Positions 987 to 20,397 of a stretch of 64,000 nt of DNA are shown here, piece after piece (positions within the stretch are counted from its first letter, which is position 1; each line of letters begins with the position of its first letter). A program made the translations under genes and the position numbers. The notes under the pieces were generated by a model that saw only the letters and a list, made by a program, of their open reading frames with translations, did no database searches and was not told where the DNA came from. This DNA is from an uncultured Gammaproteobacteria bacterium (GTDB lineage Bacteria; Pseudomonadota; Gammaproteobacteria; JASBUN01): assembly GCA_963762165.1 (NCBI GenBank), contig CAVXJN010000001.1:570900-634899 (forward strand), written 5' to 3'.

Positions 987-1835
987 TCAGTTCGTAGCGG
1001 CACGAGTAGACGGGATCGCACGCTCGTTAAGCGGCCAAACTCGGCCTTGGTCGGTAACGATTTCCCACACGTCAGGCCGCTCGAGATAGATCCGAGTCAG
1101 AATGTCGTCTGCCACTCCTGCAGCCGGCTGACGCTGACCGTGGTACGAGACCGGAGTGCCGACCGGCGTGAAGTAAATTCCAAACCGCGTCAACAAACGC
1201 AATAGAGTCGGTTCCATGACTGCGTACCAGTGAGAAATGCCGTGTTCGGCGCTCATGCGCACCACCGCGGAAAACAGACCTAACGTAATCAACGGCAGCA
1301 GGCGCCGCATGTGTTCGCGCTTCTTTGTGTCCTCATAAACAGCCAGTTCACTCAATCCACTTGGGCTAGCTGCTTCGGCGATTCGGCGTTTAAAAGCCTT
1401 TGACACGGCGAACCGCGAAATTTCCGCAGTAGAGCCGCGCGGCATATTCCGCAGCATCGGGTGTTCCCAAGACAAATTGTCACCACAGTGCTCTTCGATG
1501 GGAAACGGAGCCGCGAGCCCGGAGGTCTTCGGTAGAACCAGTCGGGTTGTGCCTGCGAGGATATCGGTATCGCGATGGTAGATAAGGCTATGGGCGGAGC
1601 GTTGATCGTAATGATCGATCTCAAACTGCTCGGGGAACTGATCTGGCGCTTCGAATTGGTTTTCGATGCAATATACTTGGTATCTTAGTGCCTGTGCCTG
1701 CTTGATTTGCTGTTCGCTGACAGCGCATCGTACTTCGAAAGTTTCTTGGAATGTGCCGAATAGGCTTTGCATGCTTTTGACCCTCCGCGGGAGTGCGGAT
1801 TCCCGCGCGACCGGCTTTCGTGGGTAATGGTGCAT
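987..1835 (-). CDS. PEP-CTERM/exosortase system-associated acyltransferase (autoinducer-synthase/N-acyl amino acid synthase-like GNAT fold)
   Basis: 282-aa ORF with motifs LRYQVYCIE and EISRFAVSK; paralogous to the adjacent ORF; family assignment recalled from memory, not searched. Confidence 0.55.
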   Translation of the reverse strand: MHHYPRKPVARESALPRRVKSMQSLFGTFQETFEVRCAVSEQQIKQAQALRYQVYCIENQFEAPDQFPEQFEIDHYDQRSAHSLIYHRDTDILAGTTRLVLPKTSGLAAPFPIEEHCGDNLSWEHPMLRNMPRGSTAEISRFAVSKAFKRRIAEAASPSGLSELAVYEDTKKREHMRRLLPLITLGLFSAVVRMSAEHGISHWYAVMEPTLLRLLTRFGIYFTPVGTPVSYHGQRQPAAGVADDILTRIYLERPDVWEIVTDQGRVWPLNERAIPSTRAATN

Positions 1836-1941
1836 CTGCCGCAGAAGTAATATCCCATTAAAAGAAGATCGAAACGTGCAACCACGTCACAATTCTGGCC
1901 TCAGTCCTTCGGGAGAAGGCGAACAATCGAGCGTGCCGCGG

Positions 1942-2769
1942 TCAATTGAGGCGCGAGGCGCGCACGGAAACATCAGCTGCGGGCGCCGGCCATGTGCGGC
2001 CGTCGTCCGTTATTAGCTCCCAAATATTTCGCCGCTCGCACCATATGCGGGCGAGCACGTCATTGATTTCACCAAAACAAGGTTGGCGGAAACCGTGATA
2101 CTCGATGAGTCCCCCCACAGGGCGGAACCGGATGCCAAAGCGCACCAGCAGGCGCATCAAGGCTGGTTCCATGACCGCGAACCAGTGTCTAAGGCCTTGA
2201 TCCGCACTCATACGAACAATGGCCAGAAATAAACCCAATGTCAAATGCGGAATAAGACGAGCCTCTTGGGGGCGCCTGGAATAGGCCACGGACCCGCCAC
2301 AACTCGCGCCGGTAATCGAGTCGCCCTCTCCTGCTCGACGCCTGAATTGCTTGGACACACCGAAGCGTGAAATCTCGCCAATGTGCTCCCTGGCTATCCG
2401 ATCTGGTCCCAGTCCCGCTGCTGTCAACGTTTTGGAACAGAGCCGCTCCATAGGTAGCAAGACGCCACGATCGCACCTATCCGGAAGCACGAGTCGTACA
2501 GTTGCGGCGAGGGCCCCCGTGGGACGATGGCGTACCAAGCTGTGGACCGAGCGGCGATCCTCGTCGTCCACTTCCCGTTGGTCTGGAAAACGCCGCGCGT
2601 CCTCGAAGGGATGTTCGATGCAATACGTCTGGTACCGCAGCCGGTACACCTCGTCTTTCAAGGCTTCCGTATTTGCCTCGCAGACTTCGAAGTAACGATG
2701 AAAAACCTCTATAAGGTCTTGCGACATATAATCTTTCCTGTAACGCGTCCGTATGAGACTTCGCCTCAC
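1942..2769 (-). CDS. PEP-CTERM/exosortase system-associated acyltransferase, second paralog
   Basis: 275-aa ORF colinear with 987..1835 (LRYQTYCIEH, EISRFGVSK, LTLGLFLAIVRMSA conserved in both). Confidence 0.55.
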   Translation of the reverse strand: MRRSLIRTRYRKDYMSQDLIEVFHRYFEVCEANTEALKDEVYRLRYQTYCIEHPFEDARRFPDQREVDDEDRRSVHSLVRHRPTGALAATVRLVLPDRCDRGVLLPMERLCSKTLTAAGLGPDRIAREHIGEISRFGVSKQFRRRAGEGDSITGASCGGSVAYSRRPQEARLIPHLTLGLFLAIVRMSADQGLRHWFAVMEPALMRLLVRFGIRFRPVGGLIEYHGFRQPCFGEINDVLARIWCERRNIWELITDDGRTWPAPAADVSVRASRLN

Positions 2770-3148
2770 CCCCCTCTATATCGACCGATTTCGAAAACCT
2801 TTGCGTGAACTGACCTACATTTCTAAGCAAATCGGGTAGTCACAGCGGCGAAAGGCACGTTATTCCGTGCAAAAGGCGCGAACGAGGATATTTGCGCAGC
2901 CTGCCGTCCGAGACTGGGTGCGCGGAAATCATCCATAGGGTGAGCTGAGCGCCGGCGCGTCACGGCGCGTTCGCCGAACTCAAATCAAGCGAAACCTCAG
3001 AACGCGGTTCGAAGAATCCGATACGGTGTGCGCGGGCTCCGCCATGCCACCGCCTCTGGTAAGACGGGTACCTGTGACCGTACCCCCAAAATCCGGTCCA
3101 TTTTCAAGGAGGGATTTCCCGATACGCTAGACTCAGGGAGGTCCCGAG

Positions 3149-3451
3149 ATGAAGCGCAAACGGTTTACCGAAGAACAGATCATTGGGATTTTGAAAGAGC
3201 ACGAGGCGGGTGCGAGTGTGGCCGATCTCGCCCGGCGCCATGGGGTAGTCGAGCAGTCGATCTACCGTTGGAAGAACAAGTACGGCGGCATGGACGTGTC
3301 GGAGGCGAAGCGGCTGCGCGAGTTGGAAGCGGAGAACGCAAAGCTCAAAAAGCTGCTGGCCGAGTCGCTCCTGGACAATGCCGCGCTGCGGGAGATCGCC
3401 GGAAAAAAATGGTACCGCCCGCGGCGAAGCGGCAGGCCGTTCAACACGTAG
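3149..3451 (+). CDS. IS3-family transposase OrfA (HTH)
   Basis: MKRKRFTEEQIIGILKE... is the typical IS3/IS407 OrfA N-terminus, with a leucine-zipper-like C-terminal part. Confidence 0.85.
   Translation: MKRKRFTEEQIIGILKEHEAGASVADLARRHGVVEQSIYRWKNKYGGMDVSEAKRLRELEAENAKLKKLLAESLLDNAALREIAGKKWYRPRRSGRPFNT
3404..3410 (+). promoter_or_regulatory. Programmed -1 ribosomal frameshift slippery heptamer (AAAAAAA) joining orfA to orfB
   Basis: GGA AAA AAA TGG in the orfA frame; a -1 shift reads ...GKKMVPPAAKRQAVQ..., which continues into the orfB frame. Confidence 0.6.
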
Positions 3452-3954
3452 TAGCGATGAAGCTACTGAGCGAGCGGCAGGCGTGCCAGTTAGTTCGGTT
3501 GTCCCGGTCGATGTGTCGGTATCAGTCCCGGCGAGCCGATGACGCCCGTTTGCGGGTGCGTCTGCGGGAACTGGCGCAGCAGTACCCGCGCTACGGCTAT
3601 CCCACGTTGCATGGTTTACTCAAGGCCGAGCAACGGGTGATCAACCCTACGAGGACGTATCGGGTCTATGCCGAAGAAGGGCTCCAGGTCCGTACCCGGC
3701 GCCGCAAGCGCTTGCAGCGGCCCCGAACGCCGATCGCACTGCCCAATCGCGTAAACGAACGCTGGTCCATGGACTTTGTGAGCGATCAACTGGCTGACGG
3801 CAGACGATTCCGGGTGTTGAACATCATCGGCGACTACTCGCGCGAGTGCGTTGGACAGCTCGTCGAAACCTCCATCTCCGGCATCCGGGTCGCGCGCTAT
3901 TTAAGCGAACTGTGCCAGCAGCGCGCCAGACCCGCGACCATCGTCACCGATAAC
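3407..3954 (+). CDS. IS3-family transposase OrfB, N-terminal portion (DDE integrase core, interrupted after ...TIVTDN)
   Basis: The orfB frame (part of ORF 3028..4089) reads ...RFRVLNIIGDYSREC...ATIVTDN and then diverges; the matching continuation GPEFTSKA... resumes at 5551. Confidence 0.7.
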
Positions 3955-5550
3955 GTGCTAACTGTGAAGTCAAGCACTGAGGTACGGGCGAGTGTAAGCG
4001 AGGCCGTGCTGGACGTCCTTGATTCGCTGCGTTCGCGGCTATCGAAAGCTGGCCTGAGCTTCCACGCTCAACAAGATCCCCTGGTCTGACCATAGTGAAC
4101 ACTATGGTCCGGTAGTGAACGGCCTCGACCGTGCTTAAAACAGTATGGGGTCCCGTGGAAGGCCCGAACATTATCTACGGGATCCTAAGAGGTCCCAACG
4201 GCCCTACAGATAGGGATCGATCCACGGGGCAAACTGGTTTCGAAGTAGCAGCGATAGGTGGTTTGGTGCTTGACCAGGCTGTAGGCGACCCGTGCCATCT
4301 TGGCCGCTACAGCGGTGAGTGCCTTGCGCTTGCGGTCGGCGTCGAGGGGATCGGGCTGCATGTAACGCTCGTACTTTTGCCGAAAACTGCTCTCGCGCAT
4401 GCGCACGGCGATCGTGGCGGCGAACCAGAACGCGAAGCGCAGGCGCGCATTGCCGCGCTTGGACAGCTTCTCCTGACCCCGGCACTGGCCCGATTGTGAC
4501 TTGGCCAAGTCCAGCCCGCAGTACTTGAGGAACTGTCGGTGATGGGAAAAGCGCCGCAGATCGCCGCCCTCGGCCAAGATGGTGAGTGCCAGCACAGGCC
4601 CTATACCGGGCAAAGAACGCAGTGACTCGTAATCTGGGCGGCCCTGCAGCAAACGATGCGCAGTCTCGGCCAACGCGTCGCGTTGTTCGATCAATTGCTG
4701 ATAACGCCGCAGCTGGAGTCGAAACGTCTCGATGGCCACATCGTCGACGGAGACCGGCAGACCGATGCTGGTGCACGCCAAATGTACAACTCTCGAATCC
4801 AGGTCCGTTTGTTGACCTTACGGCCAACCAAATCCCATGCGTCACGCTCGAACGCTTCGAATGCCAATGCATGGATCGATGCCGCCGTCGGGAAACGGAT
4901 CAGGAACCGTGCGAACCAAGCCGCCTGCGTGGTGTGGAAGTAGCGCTCGCTCTCCGGAAAATACAGCGGCAAATAATGCGTCAGAAGACTGTGTTGGAGC
5001 CGCGTGCGCGCAAGACTGATCTGATAGTGGGTTTTGGACAGCTCCTGCAAACCGTGGTGGCCGGCGATCAGTGGATCGACGTAACGTTGGGTGATCCCTT
5101 GCTTGAGCAGGGCAAGGACGACCCTGGCGTCCTTCGGGTCGTTCTTGTCCCGCGAATTGAACATCGCCTCACGGTAGCGGGCTGCAGCGACCGAAGAGAC
5201 TAGACACACGTCAAAGCCTTCCTTGAGCAAGCGATAAGCTAGCGTGCGGTGACAATCGCCGGTCGGCTCCAATGCCACGCGAACTGGCACAGGACACGCA
5301 CGCAACAGATCAACCAATCGCTGGTGGTCGTCCTGCGTGCTGCTCATCCTGAAGCGCTTTGGCTTGCTGTCAGGGGTCTCGATTAGAACGGCATGGGACC
5401 GCTTGGCGATATCGATCGCCACCCAGGTGACCGCCGGTGTAGTCTCGTTGCGGGTAGTCAGCATCGTGAATCTCCTGTGGTGTGTGAGAACCCTCAGGAT
5501 GATCCTTTCGATGGTGGCTGCCCAACCGGTCATGCTTCGATATGTACTAC
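3955..5550 (-). mobile_element. IS110-family insertion sequence nested inside IS3 orfB (boundaries approximate)
   Basis: Splits the IS3 orfB codons ...GAT AAC | GGC CCG...; carries an IS110-type (DEDD) transposase on the minus strand; no terminal inverted repeats, as expected for IS110. Confidence 0.65.
4185..5533 (-). CDS. IS110-family transposase, in two overlapping frames (frameshift near 4781-4800)
   Basis: N-terminal ORF 4691..5533 (VAIDIAKRSHAVLIE...DPKDARVVLALL) and C-terminal ORF 4185..4781 (SLPGIGPVLALTILAEGGDLRRF), matching IS110 family signatures. Confidence 0.65.
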
Positions 5551-5823
5551 GGCCCGGAGTTCACCAGCAAGGCACTGTTCTTCTGGGCGAAGGATCACGG
5601 CGTGCAGTTGCACTTCATCCAGCCTTGCAAACCGACACAGAACGCATTCGTCGAAAGCTTCAACGGCAAGTTCCGGGATCAATGTCTCAACCAACATTGG
5701 TTCCGTGATCGGTTCGACGCCCGCAACACGATTGAACAATGGAGAACCCACTACAACCACGTCAGGCCGCACCGTTCCTTGCAGAACTTGCCACCCGCGG
5801 TTTTCGCCGGACAGGCCGCCTGA
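5551..5823 (+). CDS. IS3-family transposase OrfB, C-terminal portion
   Basis: GPEFTSKALFFWAKDHGVQLHFIQPCKPTQNAFVESFNGKFRDQCLNQHWF...HYNHVRPHRSL is the conserved C-terminus of IS3/IS407 OrfB. Confidence 0.8.
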   Translation, partial: GPEFTSKALFFWAKDHGVQLHFIQPCKPTQNAFVESFNGKFRDQCLNQHWFRDRFDARNTIEQWRTHYNHVRPHRSLQNLPPAVFAGQAA

Positions 5824-6010: not shown

Positions 6011-7207
6011 TCAAAATGCGTAACGAAGCTCGGTGTAGATCCGGTCTTGATTGTCGTACTGGCCGAATAACCCTGTCGAAGGGCCGTCGAAAATGTCGAT
6101 ACCGCCGCCCAATCGCCAGTTCCTCGCGAAGCCCCAGGTCACCTTGGTTTGCAGCAACCAATCAGGCCGATTAAGACTATGAATAAGAAGCATTTCGGGC
6201 ACCACATTCGCACCGAACTCCTTGCTCCAGAGCAAACTGATCCCGCTTTCGACACTATCGGGGATCATGTCAGGATCATGATCCGGAAACCAGCGCTGGA
6301 AAAACTGGATATTCAGCCTCGTACCGTCACGCAGACTCCAATTGAGGCCGACTATGTAATCCAGGAAATCCTGCTCGACCAAACCGTCGGCGTCTGACGG
6401 TCGCGTAACCGCGAAGCGCTTGTCTTTGGTATACACGGCCTCCGCCTTTAGCACAAAACGGCGGAAATCCTTCGCCACCGTACCGCCAAACTGATGTATT
6501 CGGTGGTGAGTGGGCATGAACACGTAGGTAGGCCGCGCGCCCGGAATGATGGTGCGCTCGAAGGCCGGCGCTGATTCCATTGTTGTGTAATAAAACGCCG
6601 AAGAGTCCCAACCGTTATGAAGATATGTCCACCGTGCACCATAGGCCATGGTGTCGCTGCCCCTCGGCTTATCCTCGGAACGCACCTCCACAGGGATGCC
6701 GGGAGGCGACGCGAGCCGCGGGAAAAAATCCGCGCCAGGCTTCCCAATGCGGTCGTAGGTCATGTACGGGACCCAGACGAGTTCGAGATGGGCGTTATCG
6801 CCGAAATATTCCGCTCTTGCCGCCCACTGAGGAATGCGCAGAAACTCAAAATCCGGTAACACAAATTCCCGCAAATCTTTGGCGGATACCACGTCGGCAA
6901 AAAATAACCCTACCATTTCGCCCCAAACGATGTTTTGGCGGCCGAAACGGAAATCCCACCCCGCCTGTGACATATCCACATACGTCTCGCGAAGCATAAA
7001 GTTGAAATCCTGGTCCTCGCGGACCGCGTGGGGATAGAAATCGTTACCAACGTATACGGGATCAAATTGTAATCGCGCGCTCGCCTTCCAATCGAAACGC
7101 TTCGCGTGTCCGTCTGAAGCGATGTCAAAGGTGTTGAGAAATTTAGAAAAATGCGCCGGTTCCGCGTAGGTGTACGCGAACCCGTTTTGGAAAAATCCGC
7201 TCACCAC
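6011..7207 (-). CDS. DUF1302-family outer-membrane beta-barrel protein; lacks its own signal peptide, so possibly N-terminally fused to or truncated relative to the upstream ORF
   Basis: 398 aa with alternating beta-strand pattern and C-terminal ...TELRYAF; GTG-initiated ORF with no signal peptide; family assignment from memory. Confidence 0.5.
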   Translation of the reverse strand: MVSGFFQNGFAYTYAEPAHFSKFLNTFDIASDGHAKRFDWKASARLQFDPVYVGNDFYPHAVREDQDFNFMLRETYVDMSQAGWDFRFGRQNIVWGEMVGLFFADVVSAKDLREFVLPDFEFLRIPQWAARAEYFGDNAHLELVWVPYMTYDRIGKPGADFFPRLASPPGIPVEVRSEDKPRGSDTMAYGARWTYLHNGWDSSAFYYTTMESAPAFERTIIPGARPTYVFMPTHHRIHQFGGTVAKDFRRFVLKAEAVYTKDKRFAVTRPSDADGLVEQDFLDYIVGLNWSLRDGTRLNIQFFQRWFPDHDPDMIPDSVESGISLLWSKEFGANVVPEMLLIHSLNRPDWLLQTKVTWGFARNWRLGGGIDIFDGPSTGLFGQYDNQDRIYTELRYAF

Positions 7208-7988
7208 AGGCGTCGACGGCGAAACCTGGGCTGTTTACAGTACCGAACAGTTCACCTACTGAATCTGGCTCAGGGCTGCGAGTGATGGGAGAATCTTTTT
7301 CGGAGGCCCCGTCCGCTTTCTCGGCCGGCCCAGGCGCAAACAGCTCGTCCATAGTGGCGGGCTCATCAGCAGCCACGATAGCTTCCGCCGAGGCGGCTTG
7401 ATCCGCGTCACCCACGCCCGCCGCCGACTCCTGGGCCTCGGGTAATTGCGCGGGCTCATCAGTTGCGAACAGATCATTCATGCTTGCCGGATCGGCTGCA
7501 GCGACCCCGCGCTCTGCGGTTTCTCCGCCCGGCAGAGGCTCCGGCACGAAAAGTTCGTTTATGCTCGACGGCTGGGCTGCAACCTCCCCCCGGGGCGACG
7601 TGCCGCTTTCCGCGTCGTGCTCCGGACCCGGCCGACCAACCACACGTATCAAAGTTGGCTCAGGCCATTGGTTGGCAATTAGGTCCTGTTGCGCTCTTTC
7701 GGCCTGGGAACGCGTCTCATATGGCCCCAACCACACGCGAGTTGTATTCGGATTCCGTGCAGAATCGATGCGCGCATGATTCACCGGCAAGCCCGAAGCC
7801 TTGATGCGAGACACCACATGAGCAGCATTCTCCGGGTTCGCAAATACTCCCACGGTAACCTCATAGGCAGCATGAGCGAAACTTGAAAACAGCATCCAAG
7901 CCAGGAGAACACCGATCTGCACAGCGGCTTTATTAGGTGGTGGTTTCACTGTCTTTTTCTCCTGAATGCTATTCGGAAATTTGGCCAT
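7143..7988 (-). CDS. Signal-peptide protein with N-terminal SPOR (peptidoglycan-binding) domain and an acidic linker carrying repeated E/D-L-F motifs
   Basis: Signal peptide AVQIGVLLAWMLFSSFAHA; SPOR-like block YEVTVGVFANPENAAHVVSRIKASGLPV...RVWLGPYETRSQAERAQ; four repeats INELF / MNDLF / MDELF / VGELF. Confidence 0.55.
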   Translation of the reverse strand: MAKFPNSIQEKKTVKPPPNKAAVQIGVLLAWMLFSSFAHAAYEVTVGVFANPENAAHVVSRIKASGLPVNHARIDSARNPNTTRVWLGPYETRSQAERAQQDLIANQWPEPTLIRVVGRPGPEHDAESGTSPRGEVAAQPSSINELFVPEPLPGGETAERGVAAADPASMNDLFATDEPAQLPEAQESAAGVGDADQAASAEAIVAADEPATMDELFAPGPAEKADGASEKDSPITRSPEPDSVGELFGTVNSPGFAVDACGERIFPKRVRVHLRGTGAFF

Positions 7989-9105
7989 CGCTGAGACCGA
8001 CTAGCCGATCAGCCATTTCCATCACCCGTGGATCATGGGTTGAGAACACGAATGTAGTGTCTTCCTCACGGTTGATCTCTCTCATCAACCGCAAAATGCC
8101 TTCTCCCGTAGCGTGATCAAGATTTGCGGTCGGCTCGTCCGCCAATACCACCGAGGGGCGCGTGGCCAGCGCCCGAGCAATCGCGACCCGCTGGCGCTGT
8201 CCTCCACTGAGCTCGTTGGGACGGTGTCGTTTGAATTTGGACAATCCTACGACGTCCAGGTAGCGCTCCACTCGCTGGCCCCGCTTTTCTCGAGATAGAT
8301 CCTTATTTTGCAAAAGAGGATACTCGATGTTTTCCCACGCAGTAAGCACCGGAAGCAAATTGAAGGTCTGAAATACGAAACCCAATGTCTGGGCCCGAAG
8401 GTCCGCCAGTTGATCGGGACTGCGCGAACTCACATTCTGATTTTCGATGTAAATATCGCCACGAGTAGGCGTATCGATACAACCGATCAAATTGAGCAGC
8501 GTGGATTTTCCGCTGCCGCTTGGACCGGCCAAAGCCAAAAACTCGCCTCGCCGGACTTCGAGGCTTACGTCGCGCAACGCCGAGACCGTCTGTTTGCCAA
8601 GCGCGTATTCCTTCCACACTTTGTCGACCCTGACCAGTGCATTGTCCGTATCCGAAGCGGGGTGGTCGACTCCTGAGACCGCAAAGGTTAGCCGGTAATC
8701 GCCGAGCACAACCAAGTCACCGTCCCGCAGGGCGCTGCGATGACACTTGGCGCCGTTGACGATGAGCCCGTTGGTGCTGTCCAGATCTTCGATGAGGAAG
8801 GTACCGCCTTGCGTGCGGGTGATCTTGGCGTGCTTTCGGCTGACCGAGCAGTCTTCCAAGAACAGGTCGGAACTGGGCAGTCGTCCAATGTAGAAGCGAG
8901 CCCGGCGAACTTCGACTGTCCGCCGTCGCTCGGAGCCTCGTTCCACTTGCAGCGTCGCAATCCGGTCTTCCATTTGCACAAACTCGGTTCCCGCCCCTCC
9001 CGTCCGGGGGGCCAATCGCTGACGCGCACCCGCCCTCTTCCCAACCATGAGGGAACACCCTCGGCTGTGGTAAGCTCTGCCAAATCGGGTGAACACGAGC
9101 GACAC
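7969..9105 (-). CDS. ABC transporter ATP-binding protein with N-terminal FHA domain (LolD/MacB-like ATPase)
   Basis: FHA core IGR...VSRKHAKI...FLIEDLDSTNGLIVNG...LRDGDLVVLGD; Walker A GPSGSGKST, ABC signature LSGGQRQRVAIARAL, Walker B VVLADEPT; true start may be the internal Met at about 8976. Confidence 0.8.
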   Translation of the reverse strand: MSLVFTRFGRAYHSRGCSLMVGKRAGARQRLAPRTGGAGTEFVQMEDRIATLQVERGSERRRTVEVRRARFYIGRLPSSDLFLEDCSVSRKHAKITRTQGGTFLIEDLDSTNGLIVNGAKCHRSALRDGDLVVLGDYRLTFAVSGVDHPASDTDNALVRVDKVWKEYALGKQTVSALRDVSLEVRRGEFLALAGPSGSGKSTLLNLIGCIDTPTRGDIYIENQNVSSRSPDQLADLRAQTLGFVFQTFNLLPVLTAWENIEYPLLQNKDLSREKRGQRVERYLDVVGLSKFKRHRPNELSGGQRQRVAIARALATRPSVVLADEPTANLDHATGEGILRLMREINREEDTTFVFSTHDPRVMEMADRLVGLSDGQISE

Positions 9106-9934
9106 GTTATCTATGAGCTTGAATACTAGCAGACTTTTTACCGTTTACGGATCCGCGAGGCCCGTCAAGCGCGCAGCGGCATGGCATGTCGGCCTGCTGA
9201 CCATGATCTTCCTGGCTACATCCTTGTGGGACTCGCCGCGGGCATCGGCGACTCAGACGCCTAAGGCTCAAGAGATCCTGCAGCGTGCGGACCGCATCCG
9301 CTTTCCCGGCGATCCGTTTCAGGTCGATGTTACCGTTACCAACGAAGAACAGGGTCGCAACGAGGAAGTGCGCAAATATCGCATACTGTCCAAAGGGCAC
9401 GACCGCACCCTCGTTCAGACGCTAGCCCCGGCAATCGACCGCGGCCAGATACTGCTGATGCGTGATCACGACCTATGGGCGTTTCTTCCCAACATCTCGC
9501 AACCGATACGGCTACCACTTTCGCAACGTTTAACCGGACAAGTAGCCAATGGAGACCTAGCAAGAGCCAATTTTGTCGGTGACTACTCGCCGAAGTTGCT
9601 CGGCCAAGAAAAACTCCGCGGCGACGATTACTATGTGCTCGAACTGAACGCGGTCGACCGATGGGTCACTTACCATCAGGTCAAATATTGGGTTCATACC
9701 AAGTCCTTTCGCCCCTACAAGGCTGAATACTACGCCCTGTCCGGACGCCTGCTAAAAACCGCGCGTTACCTGAATTTTCAACGACTCGGTGGCGACGAAC
9801 GCCCCAGCCGCCTTGTCATTGACGACGCTCTTCGCAACGGTCGTCGTTCAATCATGGACTACGCGCACATGCGACTTCGCAACCTTCCCGACAAGTACTT
9901 CAATAAGGATTACTTGAAAAAGCTGAGCCGCTAA
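9089..9934 (+). CDS. LolA-like outer-membrane lipoprotein-sorting family protein (periplasmic)
   Basis: 281 aa with a signal-peptide-like N-terminus (KRAAAWHVGLLTMIFLATSLW...ASA); family recalled as a frequent partner of FtsX-type ABC permeases; start codon uncertain. Confidence 0.5.
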   Translation: MNTSDTLSMSLNTSRLFTVYGSARPVKRAAAWHVGLLTMIFLATSLWDSPRASATQTPKAQEILQRADRIRFPGDPFQVDVTVTNEEQGRNEEVRKYRILSKGHDRTLVQTLAPAIDRGQILLMRDHDLWAFLPNISQPIRLPLSQRLTGQVANGDLARANFVGDYSPKLLGQEKLRGDDYYVLELNAVDRWVTYHQVKYWVHTKSFRPYKAEYYALSGRLLKTARYLNFQRLGGDERPSRLVIDDALRNGRRSIMDYAHMRLRNLPDKYFNKDYLKKLSR

Positions 9935-9975: not shown

Positions 9976-11187
9976 TCATATATTTTGGCGCAGCGCATTG
10001 ACGATATGCAATTTCGAGGCTCTTCGTGCCGGAAATAACGACGCCAAGACTGCCGCGACTGCACCAACAACACTCGCCAATGCTAGCACTGACGGGACAA
10101 TGCGAATCGATGCGACATAGCCAGTATTGGAGCCCGGCGGAGGAGGCATCTGTATTCCGATTTGCGAAAGCACAAGCGAGAGCAATGCACCAATACCGAC
10201 GCCGAGTGCCGCGCCGGTCAAGCCCAGTATTATGTTCTCAACCAGCACCAGTCGAAAGATTTGGCCACGCCGGTTGCCGAGCGCCAGCAAAGTCCCGAAT
10301 TCGCCAGTTCGCTCGTAGATTGTCATGTTGACGGTGCTTGCGACACCGAGCAATACCATGATCAGGATAATCGCCTGAAGCGTAGCGAACTGACGCCGGT
10401 AAAGTGCGACCGTCTTATTGTAGAAATCTGCCAACTCGTACCAAGGCTTGATTTCATATCGCCCGCTGTCCAAGCGGTCGGTCAACGCCTGGACGACACG
10501 ATCCGTATTTTCCGTCCGGTCCAGGACCGCAATGATCGAATGCACTGCATTCGAAAACAACAACTCTTTGGCCGTGGACAACGGGACTCGAACCGCGCGA
10601 TCGTCGTAATCCTTGGAAAAACTTCGAAATACGCCTATCACATTGAATTCTAATGTATTTAACGCACCTTCTGGCGTGCTTACCGTGACTGTCACGTAGC
10701 TGCCTGGCTTGAGTTGCAGCGCTCCGGCGACACCCTCACCAATCAATGCGCCATATTGATCCGATCCTGTTAACTGTCTGCCCGCAACGATTGTCAATGC
10801 GGAGCCCAGCCGGGCTTCCGCATCCGGCTCGATCCCCTCCCCGCGGATTGGAATATCCCCTTTTCCATTGCTCGCCATTCCGGAAAAATAAGAGCGCGCC
10901 AGCACTTCTTTCACATGCGGCAGCGCCGTCAACCGCTCCACTAGCTTCGCCGGATCGCTGATCGAATACTTCACCGGATCACGACGACCGAATTTTGAGT
11001 ACCCTGCGTGGAACACTTGCAGGTGTCCCAAGCGAGAATGAATCGTGGCTTCGCGCAACTGCACGAACGAGTCTTCGATGAAGCCACCGCTGACGACGAT
11101 CGCGGCTACGCCTGATACGATCGCCGCCAATGTAATTGCCGTGCGAAGACGATGCCGAAACGTATTACGAAATGCGAGCTTCAACAT
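9976..11187 (-). CDS. ABC transporter permease, FtsX/MacB/LolE-like
   Basis: 403 aa; N-terminal TM, large periplasmic domain, three C-terminal TMs (FtsX fold); paralog of the next gene. Confidence 0.8.
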   Translation of the reverse strand: MLKLAFRNTFRHRLRTAITLAAIVSGVAAIVVSGGFIEDSFVQLREATIHSRLGHLQVFHAGYSKFGRRDPVKYSISDPAKLVERLTALPHVKEVLARSYFSGMASNGKGDIPIRGEGIEPDAEARLGSALTIVAGRQLTGSDQYGALIGEGVAGALQLKPGSYVTVTVSTPEGALNTLEFNVIGVFRSFSKDYDDRAVRVPLSTAKELLFSNAVHSIIAVLDRTENTDRVVQALTDRLDSGRYEIKPWYELADFYNKTVALYRRQFATLQAIILIMVLLGVASTVNMTIYERTGEFGTLLALGNRRGQIFRLVLVENIILGLTGAALGVGIGALLSLVLSQIGIQMPPPPGSNTGYVASIRIVPSVLALASVVGAVAAVLASLFPARRASKLHIVNALRQNI

Positions 11188-11211
11188 TTCTGAGCACCAG
11201 CGATGTTGAAC

Positions 11212-12441
11212 TTAGATAGAATGACGCAGCGCATCCACAATCTCTAAACGAGAAGCCTTCCACGCCGGATAGACTCCAGCGATACTCGTAGTCACCCATG
11301 CGAGCAAAAATGCATTAGCCACGATCCCCCACGTGAGAAGGATTTGACCAGTGTATCCTTTGTCCATTCCTGGCGGCGGCGGCATGGGGATACCGATTAT
11401 TGAAATCAGCCACGCGAGCACAGCGCCGATGCCAAGTCCTAAGATCGCTCCGATCAACCCCAAGAGTGAGCTTTCCCAAAGAAAGAGACGAAGAATCGTT
11501 TTTCTCTTTAAGCCGATCGCCATCAAAGTACCGATTTCTCCCGTACGCTCCAGTACATTCATCACCAGAACATTGGAAATACTCAACACCACGATAAGAG
11601 CGATGATGAGCTCAACGGCCCCCATTTGCTCAGACAGTAACTTCACCGTTTTTCTGTAGAAATCCGCACGGGCGTACCACGGAATGAATTTCACATTACG
11701 ACGCTCGGAATGGAACCGTGCTCGTAACGCTCGCAGCATATCACCAGTACTTTCCGTATCGGTTAGCAAAATCAGCCACGAATGAGATCCCGAAGTTCGC
11801 AACAGCGTGCGGGCTTGGCTGATAGGCAACCGCAGAGCGGCATCATCGTATGCTTTGCTTACACTCACGAACAGGCCGACCACGCGGAGCTCGATCGCGT
11901 TTATTCCTCCACTTTCCGAATTAGCCAAAAGCACCACCGAATCGCCGGGTTTAGCGTTTAGGTTTCTAGCCAGTCCGCGTCCAAGAACCACTTCACGTTC
12001 ATCGGGGGCCCCCGCGTGGGATAGGCCTCTACCTGACACTATCCTTAATGCACGACTGAGCTTCACTTCTTTTCCGGGCTCGACCCCCTCGCCGAGAAAT
12101 GAAACGGTCGTATCCCCCCGACTAATCATGCCGCTTAGGGAAAGGCGCTCGGCGATTAGGTCGACGCCGGGCATTTTTTCTATCTGTTTCTCCAACGGAG
12201 AATTTTCCGGCAACAGATAGGCAAAGGGATCCGCGACGCCCGCTTCCTCGTAGCCTGGCTGAACCACTTGAATGTGGCCGAATTGTGAATGAATCGTCGC
12301 TTCACGCATTGCCCAAAAAATCCACGCAACGAAGCCCTCGGCCAGCATCAGGGCCACTACCGCCGCTACGACCGTAGCCAGCGCTATTGACGCACGTCGG
12401 CGATTACGCAAAAGATTCCGGACTGGCAATGGTATTTGCAC
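11212..12441 (-). CDS. ABC transporter permease, FtsX/MacB/LolE-like (second copy)
   Basis: 409 aa with the same architecture; IPMPPPPG motif shared with 9976..11187. Confidence 0.8.
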   Translation of the reverse strand: MQIPLPVRNLLRNRRRASIALATVVAAVVALMLAEGFVAWIFWAMREATIHSQFGHIQVVQPGYEEAGVADPFAYLLPENSPLEKQIEKMPGVDLIAERLSLSGMISRGDTTVSFLGEGVEPGKEVKLSRALRIVSGRGLSHAGAPDEREVVLGRGLARNLNAKPGDSVVLLANSESGGINAIELRVVGLFVSVSKAYDDAALRLPISQARTLLRTSGSHSWLILLTDTESTGDMLRALRARFHSERRNVKFIPWYARADFYRKTVKLLSEQMGAVELIIALIVVLSISNVLVMNVLERTGEIGTLMAIGLKRKTILRLFLWESSLLGLIGAILGLGIGAVLAWLISIIGIPMPPPPGMDKGYTGQILLTWGIVANAFLLAWVTTSIAGVYPAWKASRLEIVDALRHSI

Positions 12442-13021: not shown

Positions 13022-14122
13022 ATGAATTCTTCAGGTAGCCAAAAGGTGGTCACCAATTACGGACTCATGACTGCGTTTTTACAACGCATGATTGCTGCAG
13101 GCATCCGCGCCCCATCTGGAGACAATTGCCAGCCGTGGTGGTTTGAGGCGAGCGCAGGGAATACACTTAGCATCCACGTCGATCTACCGCAGGCCGAAAG
13201 CTTTTTCGATTTCAAGCACCGCGGGTCCCTGCTATCAGTCGGAGCAGTAATCGAGAACATGCGCCTCCAGGCAGCCATGGAGGGTTTTGACTGCACGTTA
13301 TCGTACCCCGGGAACACCGGGGAAACCGGTCCCGCAGCTCAGGTAGCATTCCGACCCACATCCGCCAAAGGGTCTCAGGCTACGCTGCAAGCCGCAATGT
13401 GGCAACGTACCGTCAACCGACGGCCGTTCCTACCAGCACGGATCATGCGCAGTAAACTTCAGGCGTTGACTGAGAACCCTGTCGCAGGCGTGCGCGTCAG
13501 ATTTTTCCAGCGTCGCAGTGAAATCAAACAATGGGCGCGGCTGATCTATGCAGCGGATCGAATACGATATTCTCACCCAGTTATTCATGAGCAGGTATTT
13601 TCGAAAATTCTTTTGTCCAAGAATGAAGCACTAACCAAACGTGTCGGACTGGAAATCGATCGTCTCGGCGCAGGACCCATCGCCAAACCACTCATGCGCT
13701 TGATACGTCCTTGGGACCGAATGCATCGGCTCCGATATATTGCCGCGGACCGATTACTCGCCCGTCAAGCACAGATGCTGGCCCTGGCCAGCGGTGCGCT
13801 GTGCGTCGTTTCGATCGAGACCAATGACAACGACGCTTGGATTCGCGCGGGCGAACAAGTCGAACGCTTATGGATCAAAGCACAGTCATTAGGACTATGT
13901 GTACATCCTATAACCGTGGCTCTTTTCCTTGACATGCGCTACCGCGAAACCGGCACAGACGGATTTCGGGCCGATCACCAAAAGTTCTTGGAAGAGATCC
14001 GCGCGGGCATCGACCGCTTGATCCCAGACGGCCAATGCGCCATGTTGTTTCGGCTTGGAGTTGGCCCAATGATGGCACATCCGGCCGTTCGCAAATCCCC
14101 GGAAACGTTTCTTCGGCAATAA
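13022..14122 (+). CDS. Nitroreductase-superfamily flavoprotein, two-lobed/tandem type (366 aa)
   Basis: N-terminal nitroreductase motif RAPSGDNCQPWWFE; length consistent with tandem-lobed nitroreductase/SagB-like dehydrogenases. Confidence 0.55.
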   Translation: MNSSGSQKVVTNYGLMTAFLQRMIAAGIRAPSGDNCQPWWFEASAGNTLSIHVDLPQAESFFDFKHRGSLLSVGAVIENMRLQAAMEGFDCTLSYPGNTGETGPAAQVAFRPTSAKGSQATLQAAMWQRTVNRRPFLPARIMRSKLQALTENPVAGVRVRFFQRRSEIKQWARLIYAADRIRYSHPVIHEQVFSKILLSKNEALTKRVGLEIDRLGAGPIAKPLMRLIRPWDRMHRLRYIAADRLLARQAQMLALASGALCVVSIETNDNDAWIRAGEQVERLWIKAQSLGLCVHPITVALFLDMRYRETGTDGFRADHQKFLEEIRAGIDRLIPDGQCAMLFRLGVGPMMAHPAVRKSPETFLRQ

Positions 14123-14188
14123 AACGCAGCGTCTGCGCATAATAGCTGTCATATTCAAACGAAACGCGTGCCCCACGGAGAGTGTAAT

Positions 14189-15220
14189 ATGGACAAAGAA
14201 CTGAAATTCGACGACTTAGCCCTGATTGCCGCGGGCCATACCGCGTTCCAACTATTGTGGTCCGGTCTGCAACTCGGGTTGTTTGATTTCCTGTCCGCGA
14301 ATCCCGGTGCATCACGTGACCAGATCATGAAACACGCGGACCTCCAGGAGCAACCTGCCCGAATTCTCTTGATCGGTCTAACGACACTGAAGCTGATAAA
14401 AAAGGAAGGGGATGGTTATCGGAACGCCGACGTGGTAGCGCAAGTTCTGGTATCCAATAGCCCAGCGTACATGGGCGACGTGTTGGGATGGCAATACCAT
14501 ATTGTCTATCCGGGCGAGATGGACCTTCTTCGCGCGTTGCAGGAAAATACGAATGTGGGGCTGGGGCGATTCACCGGCACGGAAAACAACCTCTATGATC
14601 GCCTCTCGCACACCCCCGAACTGGAGAAGATTTTCCATGACGCGATGAGTTCGTTATCGAAGTCGGCCAATGTGCTTCTGGCCGAAGAGGTCCCCCTCAC
14701 GAGCATCTCTCATCTGGTCGACGCAGGCGGAGGCGATGGTACGAACGCTATCACCCTCGCTAAAGCCAACCCGCATCTCAAGGTCACCGTATTTGACTCG
14801 CCCACGGTCTGCGCCTTGGCTGAGCAGAACATACGCGAGGCAGGCATGGGGGACCGTGTAGACACCTTTCACGGCAACCTTTTTAACACCGACCTCCCCA
14901 CTGGTATCGACGCCATCTTGCTGGCGCACATGATGACCATCTGGTCTCCGGAGCACGACACGACTGTGCTGAAAAAGGCTTATGACGCGCTTCCCGCCGG
15001 AGGTCGGGTGATCGTGTTCAATATGATGGGGAACGACGATGAAGACGGGCCAATCACGGCAGCGTTGGGATCGCCCTATTTCCTGTCGATCGCCACCGGC
15101 GAAGGCATGCTATACACCTGGAAAGATTATGAATCATTTATGGACCGCGCCGGCTTTAAAAAGATCGAACGCATTTCACTGCCAAGAGATCACGGCGTGC
15201 TAATCGGCATCAAGCAATGA
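14189..15220 (+). CDS. Class I SAM-dependent O-methyltransferase (COMT-like, dimerisation domain plus Methyltransf_2)
   Basis: SAM motif LVDAGGGDGTNAITLAKANPHLKVTVFD; ATG at 14189 preceded by GGAGAG; the ORF tool's 14168 start is GTG. Confidence 0.7.
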   Translation: MDKELKFDDLALIAAGHTAFQLLWSGLQLGLFDFLSANPGASRDQIMKHADLQEQPARILLIGLTTLKLIKKEGDGYRNADVVAQVLVSNSPAYMGDVLGWQYHIVYPGEMDLLRALQENTNVGLGRFTGTENNLYDRLSHTPELEKIFHDAMSSLSKSANVLLAEEVPLTSISHLVDAGGGDGTNAITLAKANPHLKVTVFDSPTVCALAEQNIREAGMGDRVDTFHGNLFNTDLPTGIDAILLAHMMTIWSPEHDTTVLKKAYDALPAGGRVIVFNMMGNDDEDGPITAALGSPYFLSIATGEGMLYTWKDYESFMDRAGFKKIERISLPRDHGVLIGIKQ

Positions 15221-16152
15221 CGCAACCGGAAGCCGATAAGAAGCCGCGCAATCCACAAGGTCAAGTCGACGCGCAATTCGACTATCACGCTGCTTTCAGT
15301 CGCAACCTTGGGCTGGTGCAACCCGAAGAGCAGGACACGCTTCGCCGCAGCAAGATCGCGATCGCGGGCCTGGGAGGCGTTGGAGGGGTACATGTGCACA
15401 CCCTTGCACGGCTGGGCATCGGACGATTCCATCTCGCCGATTTCGACTCGTTCGAGTTGCCAAACTTCAATCGCCAAGCGGGCGCAACTGTGTCAAATCT
15501 GGGCAAGAGCAAATGCAGCGTGATGGCTGCTACTTTGACGGACATAAATCCAACGTCTGAAATTACGAGGTTCGAAGACGGGATCCATGCCGGCAACGTA
15601 GATCGGTTTCTTGAAGATGTCGATGTCGTTGTGGACGGCCTCGATTTTTTCGCCGTTGAGGCCCGCGATTTGCTCTATACCCGCGCTCGCGAGGCTGGCC
15701 TTCCCGTCGTCGGCGCAGGCCCCATCGGTTTCAGCGCGATTCTGCTTGTTTTCACACCCGATGGAATGGGCTGGCACGAATATTTCGCGATGGACCTCGC
15801 CAAAAATACGGTGGACAAGTACGTGCTGTTCGGCTTGGGTAATGCGCCGAAGGCTACCCATCTATCCTACATGGATAGGCGCTATGTCAGCCTGGATAAG
15901 AAAATCGGCCCTTCCTGCGCCGCCGCCGTGCAATTATGCGGCGGCTGGATCGGGGCCGAAGTGGTTAAACTGTTGTTGGGCAGGGGGCCTGTATTGGCTG
16001 CGCCCTATTACCACCAATTCGACGCATACAAATGCAAATATGTGCGCGGAAAGTTGAGATGGGGGAATAAAGGACCGTTACAGAGGCTGAAGTTCCTGAT
16101 CTTCAAAAAGATCTATCTCTCGAAATCGCAGAACGCCCGTCAACCGATCTAG
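15217..16152 (+). CDS. ThiF/MoeB/HesA-family E1-like adenylyltransferase (no C-terminal CxxC or rhodanese)
   Basis: Rossmann motif IAIAGLGGVGGVHVHTLARLGIGRFHLADFD...NFNRQ; start overlaps the stop of the methyltransferase (ATGA), suggesting translational coupling. Confidence 0.7.
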   Translation: MTQPEADKKPRNPQGQVDAQFDYHAAFSRNLGLVQPEEQDTLRRSKIAIAGLGGVGGVHVHTLARLGIGRFHLADFDSFELPNFNRQAGATVSNLGKSKCSVMAATLTDINPTSEITRFEDGIHAGNVDRFLEDVDVVVDGLDFFAVEARDLLYTRAREAGLPVVGAGPIGFSAILLVFTPDGMGWHEYFAMDLAKNTVDKYVLFGLGNAPKATHLSYMDRRYVSLDKKIGPSCAAAVQLCGGWIGAEVVKLLLGRGPVLAAPYYHQFDAYKCKYVRGKLRWGNKGPLQRLKFLIFKKIYLSKSQNARQPI

Positions 16153-16234
16153 CGACACCCGTAAGCCGCTTATTCGCTCACGCGCCGACCCGATCTCAGC
16201 AAAACCTGTTTGCCGCTGCATCGGCATAAAAAAA

Positions 16235-16263
16235 CCGCACAGCCAAATCGGCTGTGCGGTTTC
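16235..16263. terminator. Bidirectional rho-independent terminator between convergent genes
   Basis: A-run, then CCGCACAGCC-AAATC-GGCTGTGCGG hairpin (10-bp stem), then TTTC; lies between the ThiF gene and the PEP-CTERM gene. Confidence 0.7.
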
Positions 16264-16283
16264 AGGCAAAAGCCGCGCTGCGC

Positions 16284-17867: not shown

Positions 17868-19090
17868 ATGCGCGTTCTAGCACTCCCTTATACGCAGATG
17901 CTTTCCCATGTCAGCCGACCGCTGCTGGTCGCCCAGGAACTGAGAAACCGCGGCTGGGAGGTCATCTTTCGCGGGCGAAGGCCGGTACGCCGATTTCATT
18001 GCTCAAGCCGGATTCCCAGTTTTGCCGCTGGCGGAACCGGACCCCAGAAAACTCTTGGAAAACATCCGTAAGGGCAAAATGAGGTTCGTCACCGACGACG
18101 ATTTCCGGGACTGATAGAGGCGGATATGCTTTTATACCGGCAAGTGAAGCCAGATCTGGTACTCTCCGACTTCCGTTTTTCTGCGCCCATCTCAGCCCAG
18201 GTGGCAGGCATCCCGCACGCAGCCATCGTGAATGCTTCTTCGACGCAATATCGCGCCCTGCCCTATGTGCCGGTGTTCGGCAGGTTGCAGCGCGGCTGAC
18301 CGAACCCGCGCCAACGCTGAGCGCTGTGCTCAACCGCTTCAATGTCGGCCTAGAGATCCGCATTTTTAATCGAGCGATGAGCATTTTTACCCGGCTCAGT
18401 AGAAAATATGGTCTCCAAAAGACCGTTACTGCCACCAACTGCTTAGCCGGCGCCGATCTGACATTGATCGCCGACATTCCCGAATATTTTCCGACCCGAC
18501 GATTGCCCCCCGACTACCATTTCGTCGGTCCCCTGGCGCTTAAAAGCGACGCACCGGCTTCATCCTGGTGGCCGCCGAAAAGAACCGGGCGACCGCTGGT
18601 CTACTTCACGATGGGCACAACGGGATTGGGAGCGTTTTTCCAGTCAGCGCAGAAACTCTTGGCCGATTCTGACATCAGCGCCGTAATCACCACCGGCCAG
18701 CAGGCTGAGGGTATTCATTCTATCGATGACAGGATCTATGTCGAACCATTCATAAACGGCGACCTGGTGATGGAGGTATGTGATCTCGTCGTGTGCCACG
18801 GAGGCAACGGCACCGTTTACCAAGCCCTGCAGTACGGCAAACCGATTATCGGAATTCCCACGCTAGCGGATCAGCAATTCAACATGCGCATGGTGGAACG
18901 CTTGGGCGCCGGGCGGATGATGTCCTGGCACCGATTCCATCGTTACCCCAATTCACTAATGGATCTGATCCATGAGACTATGGAAGATTCATCGATACTG
19001 CACAATGCCGCTCGGCTGCGAGACTCTCTCGCCGAATATCATGCGGCCGATAACGCTGCAGACCTTATGACACAGCACTTTTCGCCACGC
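17868..19090 (+). pseudogene. GT1-family (UDP-glycosyltransferase/MGT-like) glycosyltransferase, disrupted by at least two frameshifts
   Basis: N-terminus MRVLALPYTQMLSHVSRPLLVAQELRNRGWEV in one frame, middle ...DLVLSDFRFSAPISAQVAGIPHAAIVNA in a second, C-terminal GT1 motif HGGNGTVYQALQYGKPIIGIPTLADQQFN in a third (ORF 18326..19171). Confidence 0.65.
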
Positions 19091-19122
19091 CGCGCGAGAT
19101 CGGCTGACGGCGCTACACCTGC

Positions 19123-20397
19123 GTGCCAAGCGCTGCTTCGGCGATCGGTGGACATAGCGAGGACGTGCTAGTGATTCATCCGCCCGAACAGCGAGCTTTC
19201 GTCAAAATCTGGAACGGCGCCGCGCGCCGCCTCGCCGTACCCGTACTACGCCCGTCACTCATGCTTGCCGACGTTGTCGATACGGCGCGGAAGAGGACCA
19301 GATATGACGGCTCCAACGGACTCAACATACTTGAGCCGCTGGAGATCCTCCTGACTTCTCTGCGTGATTCGGGCGATTTGCACGCGTTCGGACAATTCTA
19401 CGTTAGAGCCGTGATCACGAACTTGCTGGAAAACCGACTGAAATTATTTAACTTCTGGCAACAACGCCCTGATATTCTAAGGCAGCGGTTAGAACGGCCG
19501 GTGTTCATACTGGGACTTCCCCGTACCGGCACATCGCTTCTGTTCGACCTACTTTCGCGCGATCCCTGTCATCGATTTTTATCCAACTGGGAAACTACTG
19601 TTTCCCAAATAGACCCAATCGCGAGGCAGCCGGGAGGAAGATCCCGGCGCAGAATCGGTAAACGCCTCGTGCGTTTGCAGGACTATCTGGCGCCAGACTT
19701 AAAGAGCATTCACCGCTTTCACCTCGATGGTCCTGAGGAATGCACGCCTCTGCTGATGCAAAGCCTCAGTACCCAGGCACTTGCCGGAATGTTCAATGCC
19801 CCCGCTTATTCAGCGTGGCTCGACTCGGCACCCCATCTGGAGACATATCGCCATCACAGGCGGACACTTCAAACATTGCAGTGGACGTATCCTGCGCAGC
19901 GCTGGCTACTCAAGTCGCCTGACCATACGGCTGCAGTTAACGCCATTCTGGAAGTCTATCCAGACGCTTGCTTGATCCAATTGCACCGCGACCCGGCCAA
20001 ATCCGTTTCCTCCTGGGCCGATTTAAATGCCGTATTTCGCGAATCTATAGCCGTGTCGTGGACCGTCAATTGTTGGGACAGCAAGTACTGGAAAGGCTGA
20101 CACCGACATGGCCAGCTGTCTACGGCAGCGACAAACGTTCTCCCCGGCCAGATACTGGATTTGCAATACAATGACCTCATATCCGACCCCATCGGCACGG
20201 TGCGGCGGATTTACGTGCATTTTGACCTGCAATTATCCGCCGGTACTTTAACGGCTATCCAAACCTTGCTAGAGAGTCCTCGTCGTTCTAAAAGTGCGCA
20301 CCGTTATCGTCCCGAAGACTTTGGCTTGACCACTGGCGAGATCCACGAATACTTCGCAACTTATATGCAGCTTTTCTCTATTCCGACCGAAGACTAA
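19123..20397 (+). pseudogene. Sulfotransferase-family protein (PAPS-dependent), disrupted by two frameshifts near 20030 and 20140
   Basis: 5'-PSB motif ILGLPRTGTSLLFDLLSRDP; C-terminal conserved ...LDLQYNDLISDPIGTVRRIYVHF...HRYRPEDFGL only in other frames (ORFs 19968..20174 and 20161..20397). Confidence 0.6.

Follow-up and report, generated by a model that had tools for sequence, protein, structure and literature searches.

Two overlapping open reading frames (ORFs) on the minus strand of an uncultured gammaproteobacterium raise the question of whether they are two genes or the two halves of one. They lie in a stretch of 64,000 nucleotides of contig CAVXJN010000001.1 (positions 570,900 to 634,899), hereafter the window. 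The first, the SPOR ORF, runs from an ATG at 7988 to 7143 and encodes 281 aa with an N-terminal SPOR domain. The second, the barrel ORF, runs from a GTG at 7207 to 6011 and encodes 398 aa ending in ...LRYAF, as in a DUF1302-related outer-membrane beta-barrel. An earlier note on this DNA had placed the two ORFs one indel away from a single protein with a signal peptide, SPOR domain, linker and barrel. We find that the two ORFs are one gene, and that the base dividing them is most likely an error in the consensus sequence.

We first consider what change would join the two frames. Every 1-nt deletion tested from 7237 to 7204 gave a single ORF of 658 aa, and a 2-nt insertion also joined the frames, whereas a 1-nt insertion failed to do so. 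Therefore, the DNA as given has one base in surplus or two missing, and the deletion half of the proposed "+/-1 indel" holds while the insertion half does not. As the earlier note had read it, the barrel ORF starts with GTG, lacks a signal peptide and is open upstream only as far as a TAA at 7237..7235, ten codons above GTG 7207. Because the frame closes there, the barrel ORF cannot encode a signal peptide; only the repaired gene has one, by way of the SPOR ORF. The repaired length had been put at roughly 660 aa, which agrees with the 658 aa obtained from ATG 7988. From the sequence context, however, GTG 7949 is the likelier start. It lies 19 nt beyond the stop of the preceding ATP-binding cassette (ABC) ATPase gene, which ATG 7988 overlaps, and the product annotated in the source assembly (P0134, 268 aa) corresponds to a start at GTG 7949. 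With this start the repaired protein has 645 aa rather than 658 aa.

A homologue search with the barrel ORF found 2769 proteins, and we examined domain content in the top 120. The closest homologue, P0001, is a 574-aa protein that carries SPOR and DUF1302 in one polypeptide and whose barrel is 66% identical at full coverage. Five others among the top 120 have the same fusion (P0007, P0086, P0097, P0118 and P0111, the last named "DUF1302 family protein"). The N-terminal part of P0001 also aligns colinearly with the SPOR ORF (138 aa at 34% identity, E-value 5e-14). When the SPOR ORF was searched against 5.8 billion clusters, the sole match was the source's own copy, and no stand-alone SPOR homologue with the same C-terminus was found. 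On the contig that encodes P0001 (locus L034), one 574-aa gene stands in place of the window's two ORFs. The gene order there is as in the window: PEP-CTERM protein, ThiF, O-methyltransferase, nitroreductase-like protein, FtsX, FtsX, LolA-like protein, ABC ATPase with an FHA domain, the SPOR-barrel gene and two acyltransferases.

The fused homologues and the repaired protein have in common a signal peptide, a SPOR domain, a low-complexity linker with xxLF motifs and a barrel. P0001 sits in the same operon and neighbourhood as the window gene, and P0111 has the same neighbour families. Relative to these public fusions, which are intact single ORFs, the window barrel is 54-66% identical and the SPOR domain about 34%, and the window linker is longer, with four motif copies where the others have one to three. 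When genome and metagenome contigs were scanned with the repaired protein, no relative exceeded 55% identity. Judged by these sequences, the architecture is already present in public metagenome and metagenome-assembled genome data, to which the window protein adds a well-supported example. A literature search returned no paper combining "SPOR domain" and "DUF1302" and no experimental study of any member of this barrel subfamily.

Where homologues begin to align is informative. Across ten full-length homologues, conservation begins at "GF[FY]QN.LAYTY", the first residues past the junction in the window, and in each of the ten a linker and signal peptide precede this point. No intact homologue starts at the position of GTG 7207; the full-length ones extend upstream into linker and signal peptide. 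The SPOR ORF reads through the same DNA in another frame, and its end, given in Table 1, is by this comparison not a native peptide, as the other frame of 7143..7234 encodes the family's conserved barrel start "GFFQNGFAYTY...HFSKF". The barrel ORF had been described as about 200 aa short. This is true relative to the SPOR-fused homologues (about 180-230 aa), but relative to most close homologues the difference is 70-150 aa. Nor is the barrel ORF internally truncated: the whole conserved barrel is present from its first strand, and only the signal peptide, the optional domain and the linker are missing.

The DUF1302 profile (PF06980) matched the barrel ORF with 47 bits against a cut-off of 23.2 (E-value 2.6e-12), in a partial match covering profile positions 98-446 of 541 and protein residues 40-315. 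Close homologues of the barrel scored 47-65 bits, some of them spanning profile positions 75-541. NCBIfam had no model for the barrel. The SPOR profile (PF05036) matched residues 39-103 of the SPOR ORF with 35.9 bits against a cut-off of 21.

The linker provides a further connection between the two halves. The acidic repeat region of the SPOR ORF, which ends 65 nt inside the barrel ORF (7207..7143) as the earlier note described, contains four copies of a (D/E)xLF motif. Of 114 close homologues, 105 carry this motif, typically IDDLF, in the N-terminal tail, with 130 occurrences compared to 1.4 when the tails were shuffled. Distant members carry the variant [KR]-D-[DEA]-L-F-G, and 34 of 45 more distant loci contain the core pattern (50 occurrences compared to 1.7 in shuffled tails). 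The consensus is a short linear motif, (I/M/L/V/K)-D-(D/E/A)-L-F-(G), within an otherwise low-complexity periplasmic tail. Because the motif is a hallmark of the family, the linker of the SPOR ORF is typical of the barrel family's own N-terminal tail.

The domain preceding this tail varies within the family. In four loci (L037, L039, L043 and L050) an immunoglobulin-like FimV_N domain (PF25800, 98 bits) replaces SPOR at the same position, suggesting that the N-terminal periplasmic module of the barrel family is interchangeable.

We modelled the repaired protein with AlphaFold2 using 75 homologues (mean predicted local distance difference test score, pLDDT, 72; predicted template modelling score 0.62). 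The signal peptide is a helix at residues 20-34 and aligns with the signal peptides of the fused homologues. Residues 42-116 adopt the ribonucleoprotein-like beta-alpha-beta-beta-alpha-beta SPOR fold (pLDDT 72-90), with strands at 42-49, 73-75, 83-90 and 113-116 and helices at 52-64 and 93-105. The acidic linker, about 140 aa long, is disordered at residues 119-254 (pLDDT <50). The barrel follows from 261 to 657, mostly with pLDDT >90, and its first strand, at 261, coincides with the junction. The fold belongs to the 18-strand class of outer-membrane beta-barrels, and the C-terminal residue is aromatic. Conservation within the family peaks in one segment of the barrel, GRQxIVWGEMVGLFFADVVSAKDLR (residues 349-383, window ~6860-6950), which is nearly invariant in 76 sequences; within it, residues 358-383 are the one stretch of the barrel where model confidence is low (pLDDT <50). 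On the basis of the model, this segment may be a mobile plug or gating loop.

Could the SPOR ORF and the barrel ORF nevertheless be separate genes, one for a secreted SPOR protein and one for a barrel started at GTG 7207? Both ORFs are of respectable length, and gene callers list the SPOR ORF. However, the barrel ORF has no means of gaining a signal peptide, no Shine-Dalgarno-like sequence is present in the 15 nt before GTG 7207, and the SPOR ORF is without a stand-alone homologue. A 399-aa homologue of similar extent (P0047) starts with a non-Met residue and looks cut, while the other homologues inspected and the longer related loci extend upstream into the linker or signal-peptide region. 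We regard two separate genes as extremely improbable. Because of the fused homologues, the synteny at L034, the colinear SPOR domain, the lack of a stand-alone SPOR homologue, the linker motif, the modelled junction and the missing start signals, we conclude that the two ORFs are one gene.

One gene could still be read in two frames if the ribosome made a programmed +1 shift, yielding the fused protein from the sequence as given. The shift required is indeed +1, and the two frames overlap across 7234..7143. Against this, a single frame encodes the protein in every homologue examined, the syntenic orthologue among them, and no shift-prone site (a rare or stop codon after a slippery codon) was recognised in 7237..7204. 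Breaks of the same kind also occur in unrelated genes of the window. Programmed frameshifting is therefore very hard to credit, and to anything besides an artefact or a recent pseudogene we give only a very slight chance.

Breaks in other genes bear directly on whether the surplus base is an error. The earlier note had described the assembly as carrying many frame breaks of a single nucleotide, and this was borne out: the window contains at least 14 frame-changing indels, at least 12 of them in the six genes that close Table 1. Window proteins cluster at ≥90% identity with proteins on a 945-kb and a 924-kb contig of a sister genome, and the housekeeping genes in common with these contigs are about 89% identical in DNA. 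Two stretches of the 945-kb contig (L083 and L084) align to window positions 25211-41859 and 46310-63998, 34 kb in all, at 89-91% DNA identity. The name of the sister contig, contig_12325, hints at long-read assembly, though this is only a guess. Five genes of the aligned part are broken in the window and intact in the sister (Table 1). The density of breaks is about 1 per 4 kb in the aligned part and about one per 4-5 kb in the window. Polarity could be assigned to nine indels, and eight of these are +1 insertions on the window side, which is also the polarity of the SPOR-barrel break. Outside the aligned part, a PrsT-like gene is broken repeatedly, and an IS110 transposase is split so that its two domains lie in different frames.

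A noisy consensus accounts for this pattern far better than would a genome with a quarter of its genes freshly broken. The barrel itself departs from the consensus at 18 of 172 highly conserved columns, and intact SPOR-fused relatives do so at 12-22; by this measure, the barrel appears to be under no relaxed constraint. We consider it likely that the surplus base in 7237..7204 is a consensus error introduced in sequencing or assembly. If so, the gene is intact in the organism.

The competing explanation is that a real and recent 1-nt insertion, or a 2-nt deletion, inactivated the SPOR-barrel gene. The cell's product would then be, at most, a SPOR-linker protein in the periplasm that ends in 26 nonsense residues, and the barrel half, lacking both a signal peptide and a ribosome-binding site, would be a dead remnant. 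Several observations weigh in this direction and against a sequence error. Insertion-sequence (IS) remnants flank the gene cluster and lie directly downstream of the barrel gene, and the IS110 copy among them is itself broken. The region below ~25200, to which the cluster belongs, is not common to the sister genome, making the cluster accessory, and real gene loss is common in IS-flanked, non-shared stretches. The breaks also cluster, with three each in malQ, the GH57 gene and the TPR paralogue. Compared to their neighbours, malQ and GH57 show greater divergence from the sister (81-86% aa identity), as in decaying genes, so real decaying pseudogenes could exist here. The source annotation lists the SPOR half, while the protein collection searched contains no barrel-half product. 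The break lies outside any long homopolymer, since the interval 7237..7204 holds only runs of three. Precisely placeable breaks elsewhere are likewise mostly outside long homopolymers, which neither supports nor excludes error.

Other features of the breaks speak against decay. No second lesion is found across the 1.95 kb of the gene, and constrained columns are conserved normally. Breaks hit conserved housekeeping-type genes (tgt and the rodZ-like gene), and the segments beside the breaks retain 92-97% protein identity to the sister. The strong bias towards +1 insertions is also unexpected. Spontaneous bacterial indels lean towards deletions, so the bias fits a technical error mode better. 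We therefore judge a real pseudogene unlikely, and return to a sequence error as the preferred explanation of the split.

CCWGG sites are a trouble spot for some long-read basecallers. As a cause of the breaks they were unsupported, with CCWGG near only 2 of 7 break intervals, those of SPOR-barrel (7225) and rodZ (40005). Separately, a glycosyltransferase ORF at 18326..19171 gives a match confined to the C-terminal domain of GT28/EryCIII-type enzymes. The two same-strand ORFs upstream of it gave no family match, and the region 17359-19171 may be another frame-broken gene.

Table 1. Positions in the window of the parts of the SPOR-barrel gene, its neighbours, locus markers and other frame-broken genes
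Feature	Position	Strand	Basis or remark
Likely true start	7947..7963	-	AGGAG 7963..7959, 9-nt spacer, GTG 7949..7947
Putative Sec-type signal peptide VKPPPNKAAVQIGVLLAWMLFSSFAHA, cleavage expected after AHA	7869..7949	-	Inspection of translation
SPOR domain, residues ~41-116 of the 281-aa ORF	7641..7868	-	Pfam PF05036, AlphaFold2 fold, likeness to P0001
Disordered acidic linker with four (D/E)xLF motifs	7238..7640	-	Motif scan and pLDDT <50 at 119-254
INELF (INELF143)	7562..7548	-	(D/E)xLF motif in linker
MNDLF (MNDLF170)	7481..7467	-	(D/E)xLF motif in linker
MDELF (MDELF213)	7352..7338	-	(D/E)xLF motif in linker
VGELF (VGELF244)	7259..7245	-	(D/E)xLF motif in linker
Frame-break interval	7204..7237	-	Must hold the surplus nt (or 2-nt loss); includes TAA 7237..7235
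Out-of-frame SPOR ORF tail ...NSPGFAVDACGERIFPKRVRVHLRGTGAFF* across the first barrel strands	7143..7234	-	Without homologues
Complete beta-barrel domain, DUF1302-related, aromatic C-terminus ...YTELRYAF	6011..7207	-	Stop 6013..6011
FHA-domain LolD-like ABC ATPase, same operon, directly upstream	7969..9105	-	Pfam FHA and ABC_tran; maximal ORF
Periplasmic LolA-like protein (PF17131, TP_0789-like)	9089..9934	+, divergent	Pfam, 158.9 bits
Two MacB_PCD + FtsX permeases, LolC/LolE-like	11187..9976 and 12441..11212 (9976..12441)	-	Pfam
IS remnant cluster, separating the barrel gene from the two acyltransferase genes	3028..5823		Pfam
IS3-type rve ORF	3028..4089		
IS110 transposase, DEDD and Transposase_20 domains in different frames	5533..4691 and 4781..4185		
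rve_3 fragment, 93 aa	5542..5823		
PrsT			TIGR02917, 781 bits vs 312
PrsR			TIGR02915, 751 bits vs 503
EpsB_2			TIGR03013, 562 bits vs 393
Acyltransferase, two copies			TIGR03694, 270 and 266 bits vs 112
EDSAP-1 PEP-CTERM protein			NF041538, 253 bits vs 100
Second PrsT-like TPR gene, colinear in four frame segments	21189-23881		Outside the sister-aligned part
PrsK-like 705-aa PEP-CTERM histidine kinase, split	28278-30390; +1 at 29657		Against intact sister
rodZ-like gene, split	39455-40446; -1 at 40003		Against intact sister
tgt, split	51225-52335; +1 at 52033		Against intact sister
malQ, three +1 insertions with in-frame stop	56305-57810; 57463, 57597, 57675		Against intact sister
GH57 gene read in four frames	57904-59616; breaks 57985, 58130-58140, 58799		Against intact sister

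What might such a barrel do? Its neighbours are recurrent. In 82 related loci, the gene for the FHA-domain ABC ATPase adjoins the barrel gene in 69, the LolA-like gene stands beside ATPase and barrel in 53, and two MacB_PCD/FtsX permease genes are close to the barrel in 38. ABC, LolA-like and barrel genes are also found around the fused P0111, and culturable carriers of the module include Plasticicumulans lactativorans DSM 25287 and Zeimonas arvi. ThiF-like and nitroreductase-like genes are frequent neighbours, fused to each other in some genomes, and TIGR03694-type acyltransferases are occasional ones. The ATPase scored 221 bits as LolD, below the equivalog cut-off of 307.75, and the two permeases scored 95.4 and 111.4 bits against the NCBIfam lolCE cut-off of 362.45. 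On these scores, the neighbouring genes are best taken as related transporters and not as LolCDE itself. The listed ATPase ORF is the longest possible one, and its real start is probably further in. Its FHA domain is N-terminal (63 bits), is present in the L034 copy and is absent from the copy near P0111 (L085); such a domain suggests control of the ATPase by Ser/Thr phosphorylation.

The window is an XrtA/PEP-CTERM (exosortase) locus, with PrsT, PrsR, an EpsB-type transferase, acyltransferases and a PEP-CTERM protein scored as markers (Table 1), and it also holds the broken PrsK-like histidine kinase. A set of genes travels with the ABC/LolA-like/barrel module across distant genomes (window 987-2769 and 13022-17300; L034; L085). 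It comprises two TIGR03694 acyltransferases, a ThiF-like E1, an Rv1355c/Acg-type nitroreductase-like protein, an O-methyltransferase and the EDSAP-1 PEP-CTERM protein. At L085 the ThiF-like E1 and the nitroreductase-like protein are one fused 658-aa gene. L034 has no IS remnants at the matching place, and there the barrel gene and the acyltransferases are adjacent. DNA similarity to the sister (L083) ends at ~25211, inside prsT. The half of the exosortase locus with the ABC, barrel and acyltransferase genes is thus without a 90%-identical sister counterpart, indicating that this half is strain- or species-variable.

The repaired protein resembles several known systems in part. DUF1302 has been reported as an 18-strand Occ/AlgE-like barrel in a predicted complex with DUF1329 (PMC13499233). 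Compared to Occ/OprD channels and AlgE, the window barrel is only 7-12% identical and belongs to no common sequence family, and its nearly invariant segment has no established counterpart there. With the DUF1302 barrels that are paired with DUF1329 in Pseudomonas and Shewanella it shares a Pfam match above the gathering score, the 18-strand Occ/AlgE-like fold and an adjoining LolA-fold gene, although its profile match is only the partial one given above. The partners differ: PF17131 (TP_0789-like) in the window and DUF1329 in Pseudomonas and Shewanella. So does the inner-membrane engine, a MacB/LolCDE-type ABC transporter in the window and a resistance-nodulation-division-type exporter with a BNR protein in the other clusters. 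Unlike the DUF1302-DUF1329 systems, the window gene also has an N-terminal SPOR domain and a (D/E)xLF linker and lies inside an XrtA/PEP-CTERM locus.

The order of an N-terminal wall-binding domain and a C-terminal barrel is the same as in OmpM1 of Veillonella (SLH and barrel, PDB 8bym). OmpA/OprF, with a barrel and an OmpA_C domain, and Pal likewise combine a peptidoglycan-binding domain and an outer-membrane anchor in one polypeptide. The likeness to OmpA and Pal that had been suggested holds for functional logic only; neither ORF had an OmpA-family Pfam match, OmpA_C-like domains included, at an E-value of 0.01 or below. FtsN, DamX, DedD and RlpA have a SPOR domain in common with the window protein, whose SPOR domain is weakly similar to those of FtsN and RlpA. 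However, these proteins are inner-membrane-anchored or lipoproteins, and none is fused to an integral outer-membrane barrel. Characterised SPOR domains are known to bind denuded peptidoglycan, in which the glycan strands have lost their peptides, and to localise to the septum (PMC6895207).

A functional precedent is the published linkage of DUF1302 barrels with the LolA/LolB-like DUF1329 and an inner-membrane exporter, for which export of an envelope component has been proposed (bioRxiv 10.1101/072470). The Lol system itself (LolCDE-LolA-LolB) also has two FtsX-type permeases, a LolD-like ATPase and a periplasmic LolA-fold protein. It is distinct from the window module, whose proteins fall far short of the equivalog cut-offs, whose ATPase has an FHA domain and whose partner at the outer membrane is a barrel rather than LolB. 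By analogy with the DUF1302/DUF1329 and Lol systems, we propose a Lol-like route. The LolCDE-like ABC transporter, with its two FtsX/MacB permeases and FHA-bearing LolD-like ATPase, would extract a hydrophobic cargo from the inner membrane, the LolA-like carrier would ferry it across the periplasm, and the barrel would serve as its outer-membrane acceptor or exit. The SPOR domain could tether the barrel to peptidoglycan, and a periplasmic partner could dock on the (D/E)xLF motifs of the linker. The neighbouring genes suggest two candidate cargoes: a lipid produced by the pair of PEP-CTERM/exosortase-associated acyltransferases, or a PEP-CTERM protein after processing by an exosortase.

Within this explanation, it is demonstrated that the architecture is that of one gene, that the operon is conserved and to which fold class the barrel belongs. 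Cargo, motif docking and wall tethering are drawn by analogy only, and this counts against the explanation as a whole. Taken together, that a single gene for a SPOR-linker-barrel outer-membrane protein of ~645 aa was split by an error is, in our assessment, probable; the barrel would be a candidate for the outer-membrane end of a Lol-like route. A broader idea is decidedly speculative: whatever its N-terminal domain (SPOR, FimV_N or none), the barrel family might end an undescribed Lol-like route dedicated to XrtA/PEP-CTERM systems. In such a route the ABC transporter would be FHA-regulated, the carrier would dock on the motifs and SPOR would place the barrel at septal denuded peptidoglycan. 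The cargo would be an N-acyl lipid from the TIGR03694 acyltransferases or an exosortase-processed, possibly lipid-linked PEP-CTERM protein such as the adjacent EDSAP-1.

Since a sequence error is the likeliest cause of the split, the main consequence is for annotation, where the SPOR and barrel ORFs are best combined into one gene and marked as containing a probable error. As the window is rich in errors, other "split" or "truncated" genes in it are equally suspect. The repaired protein is an integral outer-membrane barrel with an N-terminal SPOR domain, from a family of more than 2700 unstudied homologues. Inside exosortase/PEP-CTERM loci, genes of this family are closely associated with those for a LolCDE-like ABC transporter and a LolA-like protein, and the short motif in the periplasmic tail of the barrels is strikingly conserved. 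Should the module export a lipid or lipoprotein, it would have a bearing on what exosortase substrates are attached to and how they reach the cell surface.

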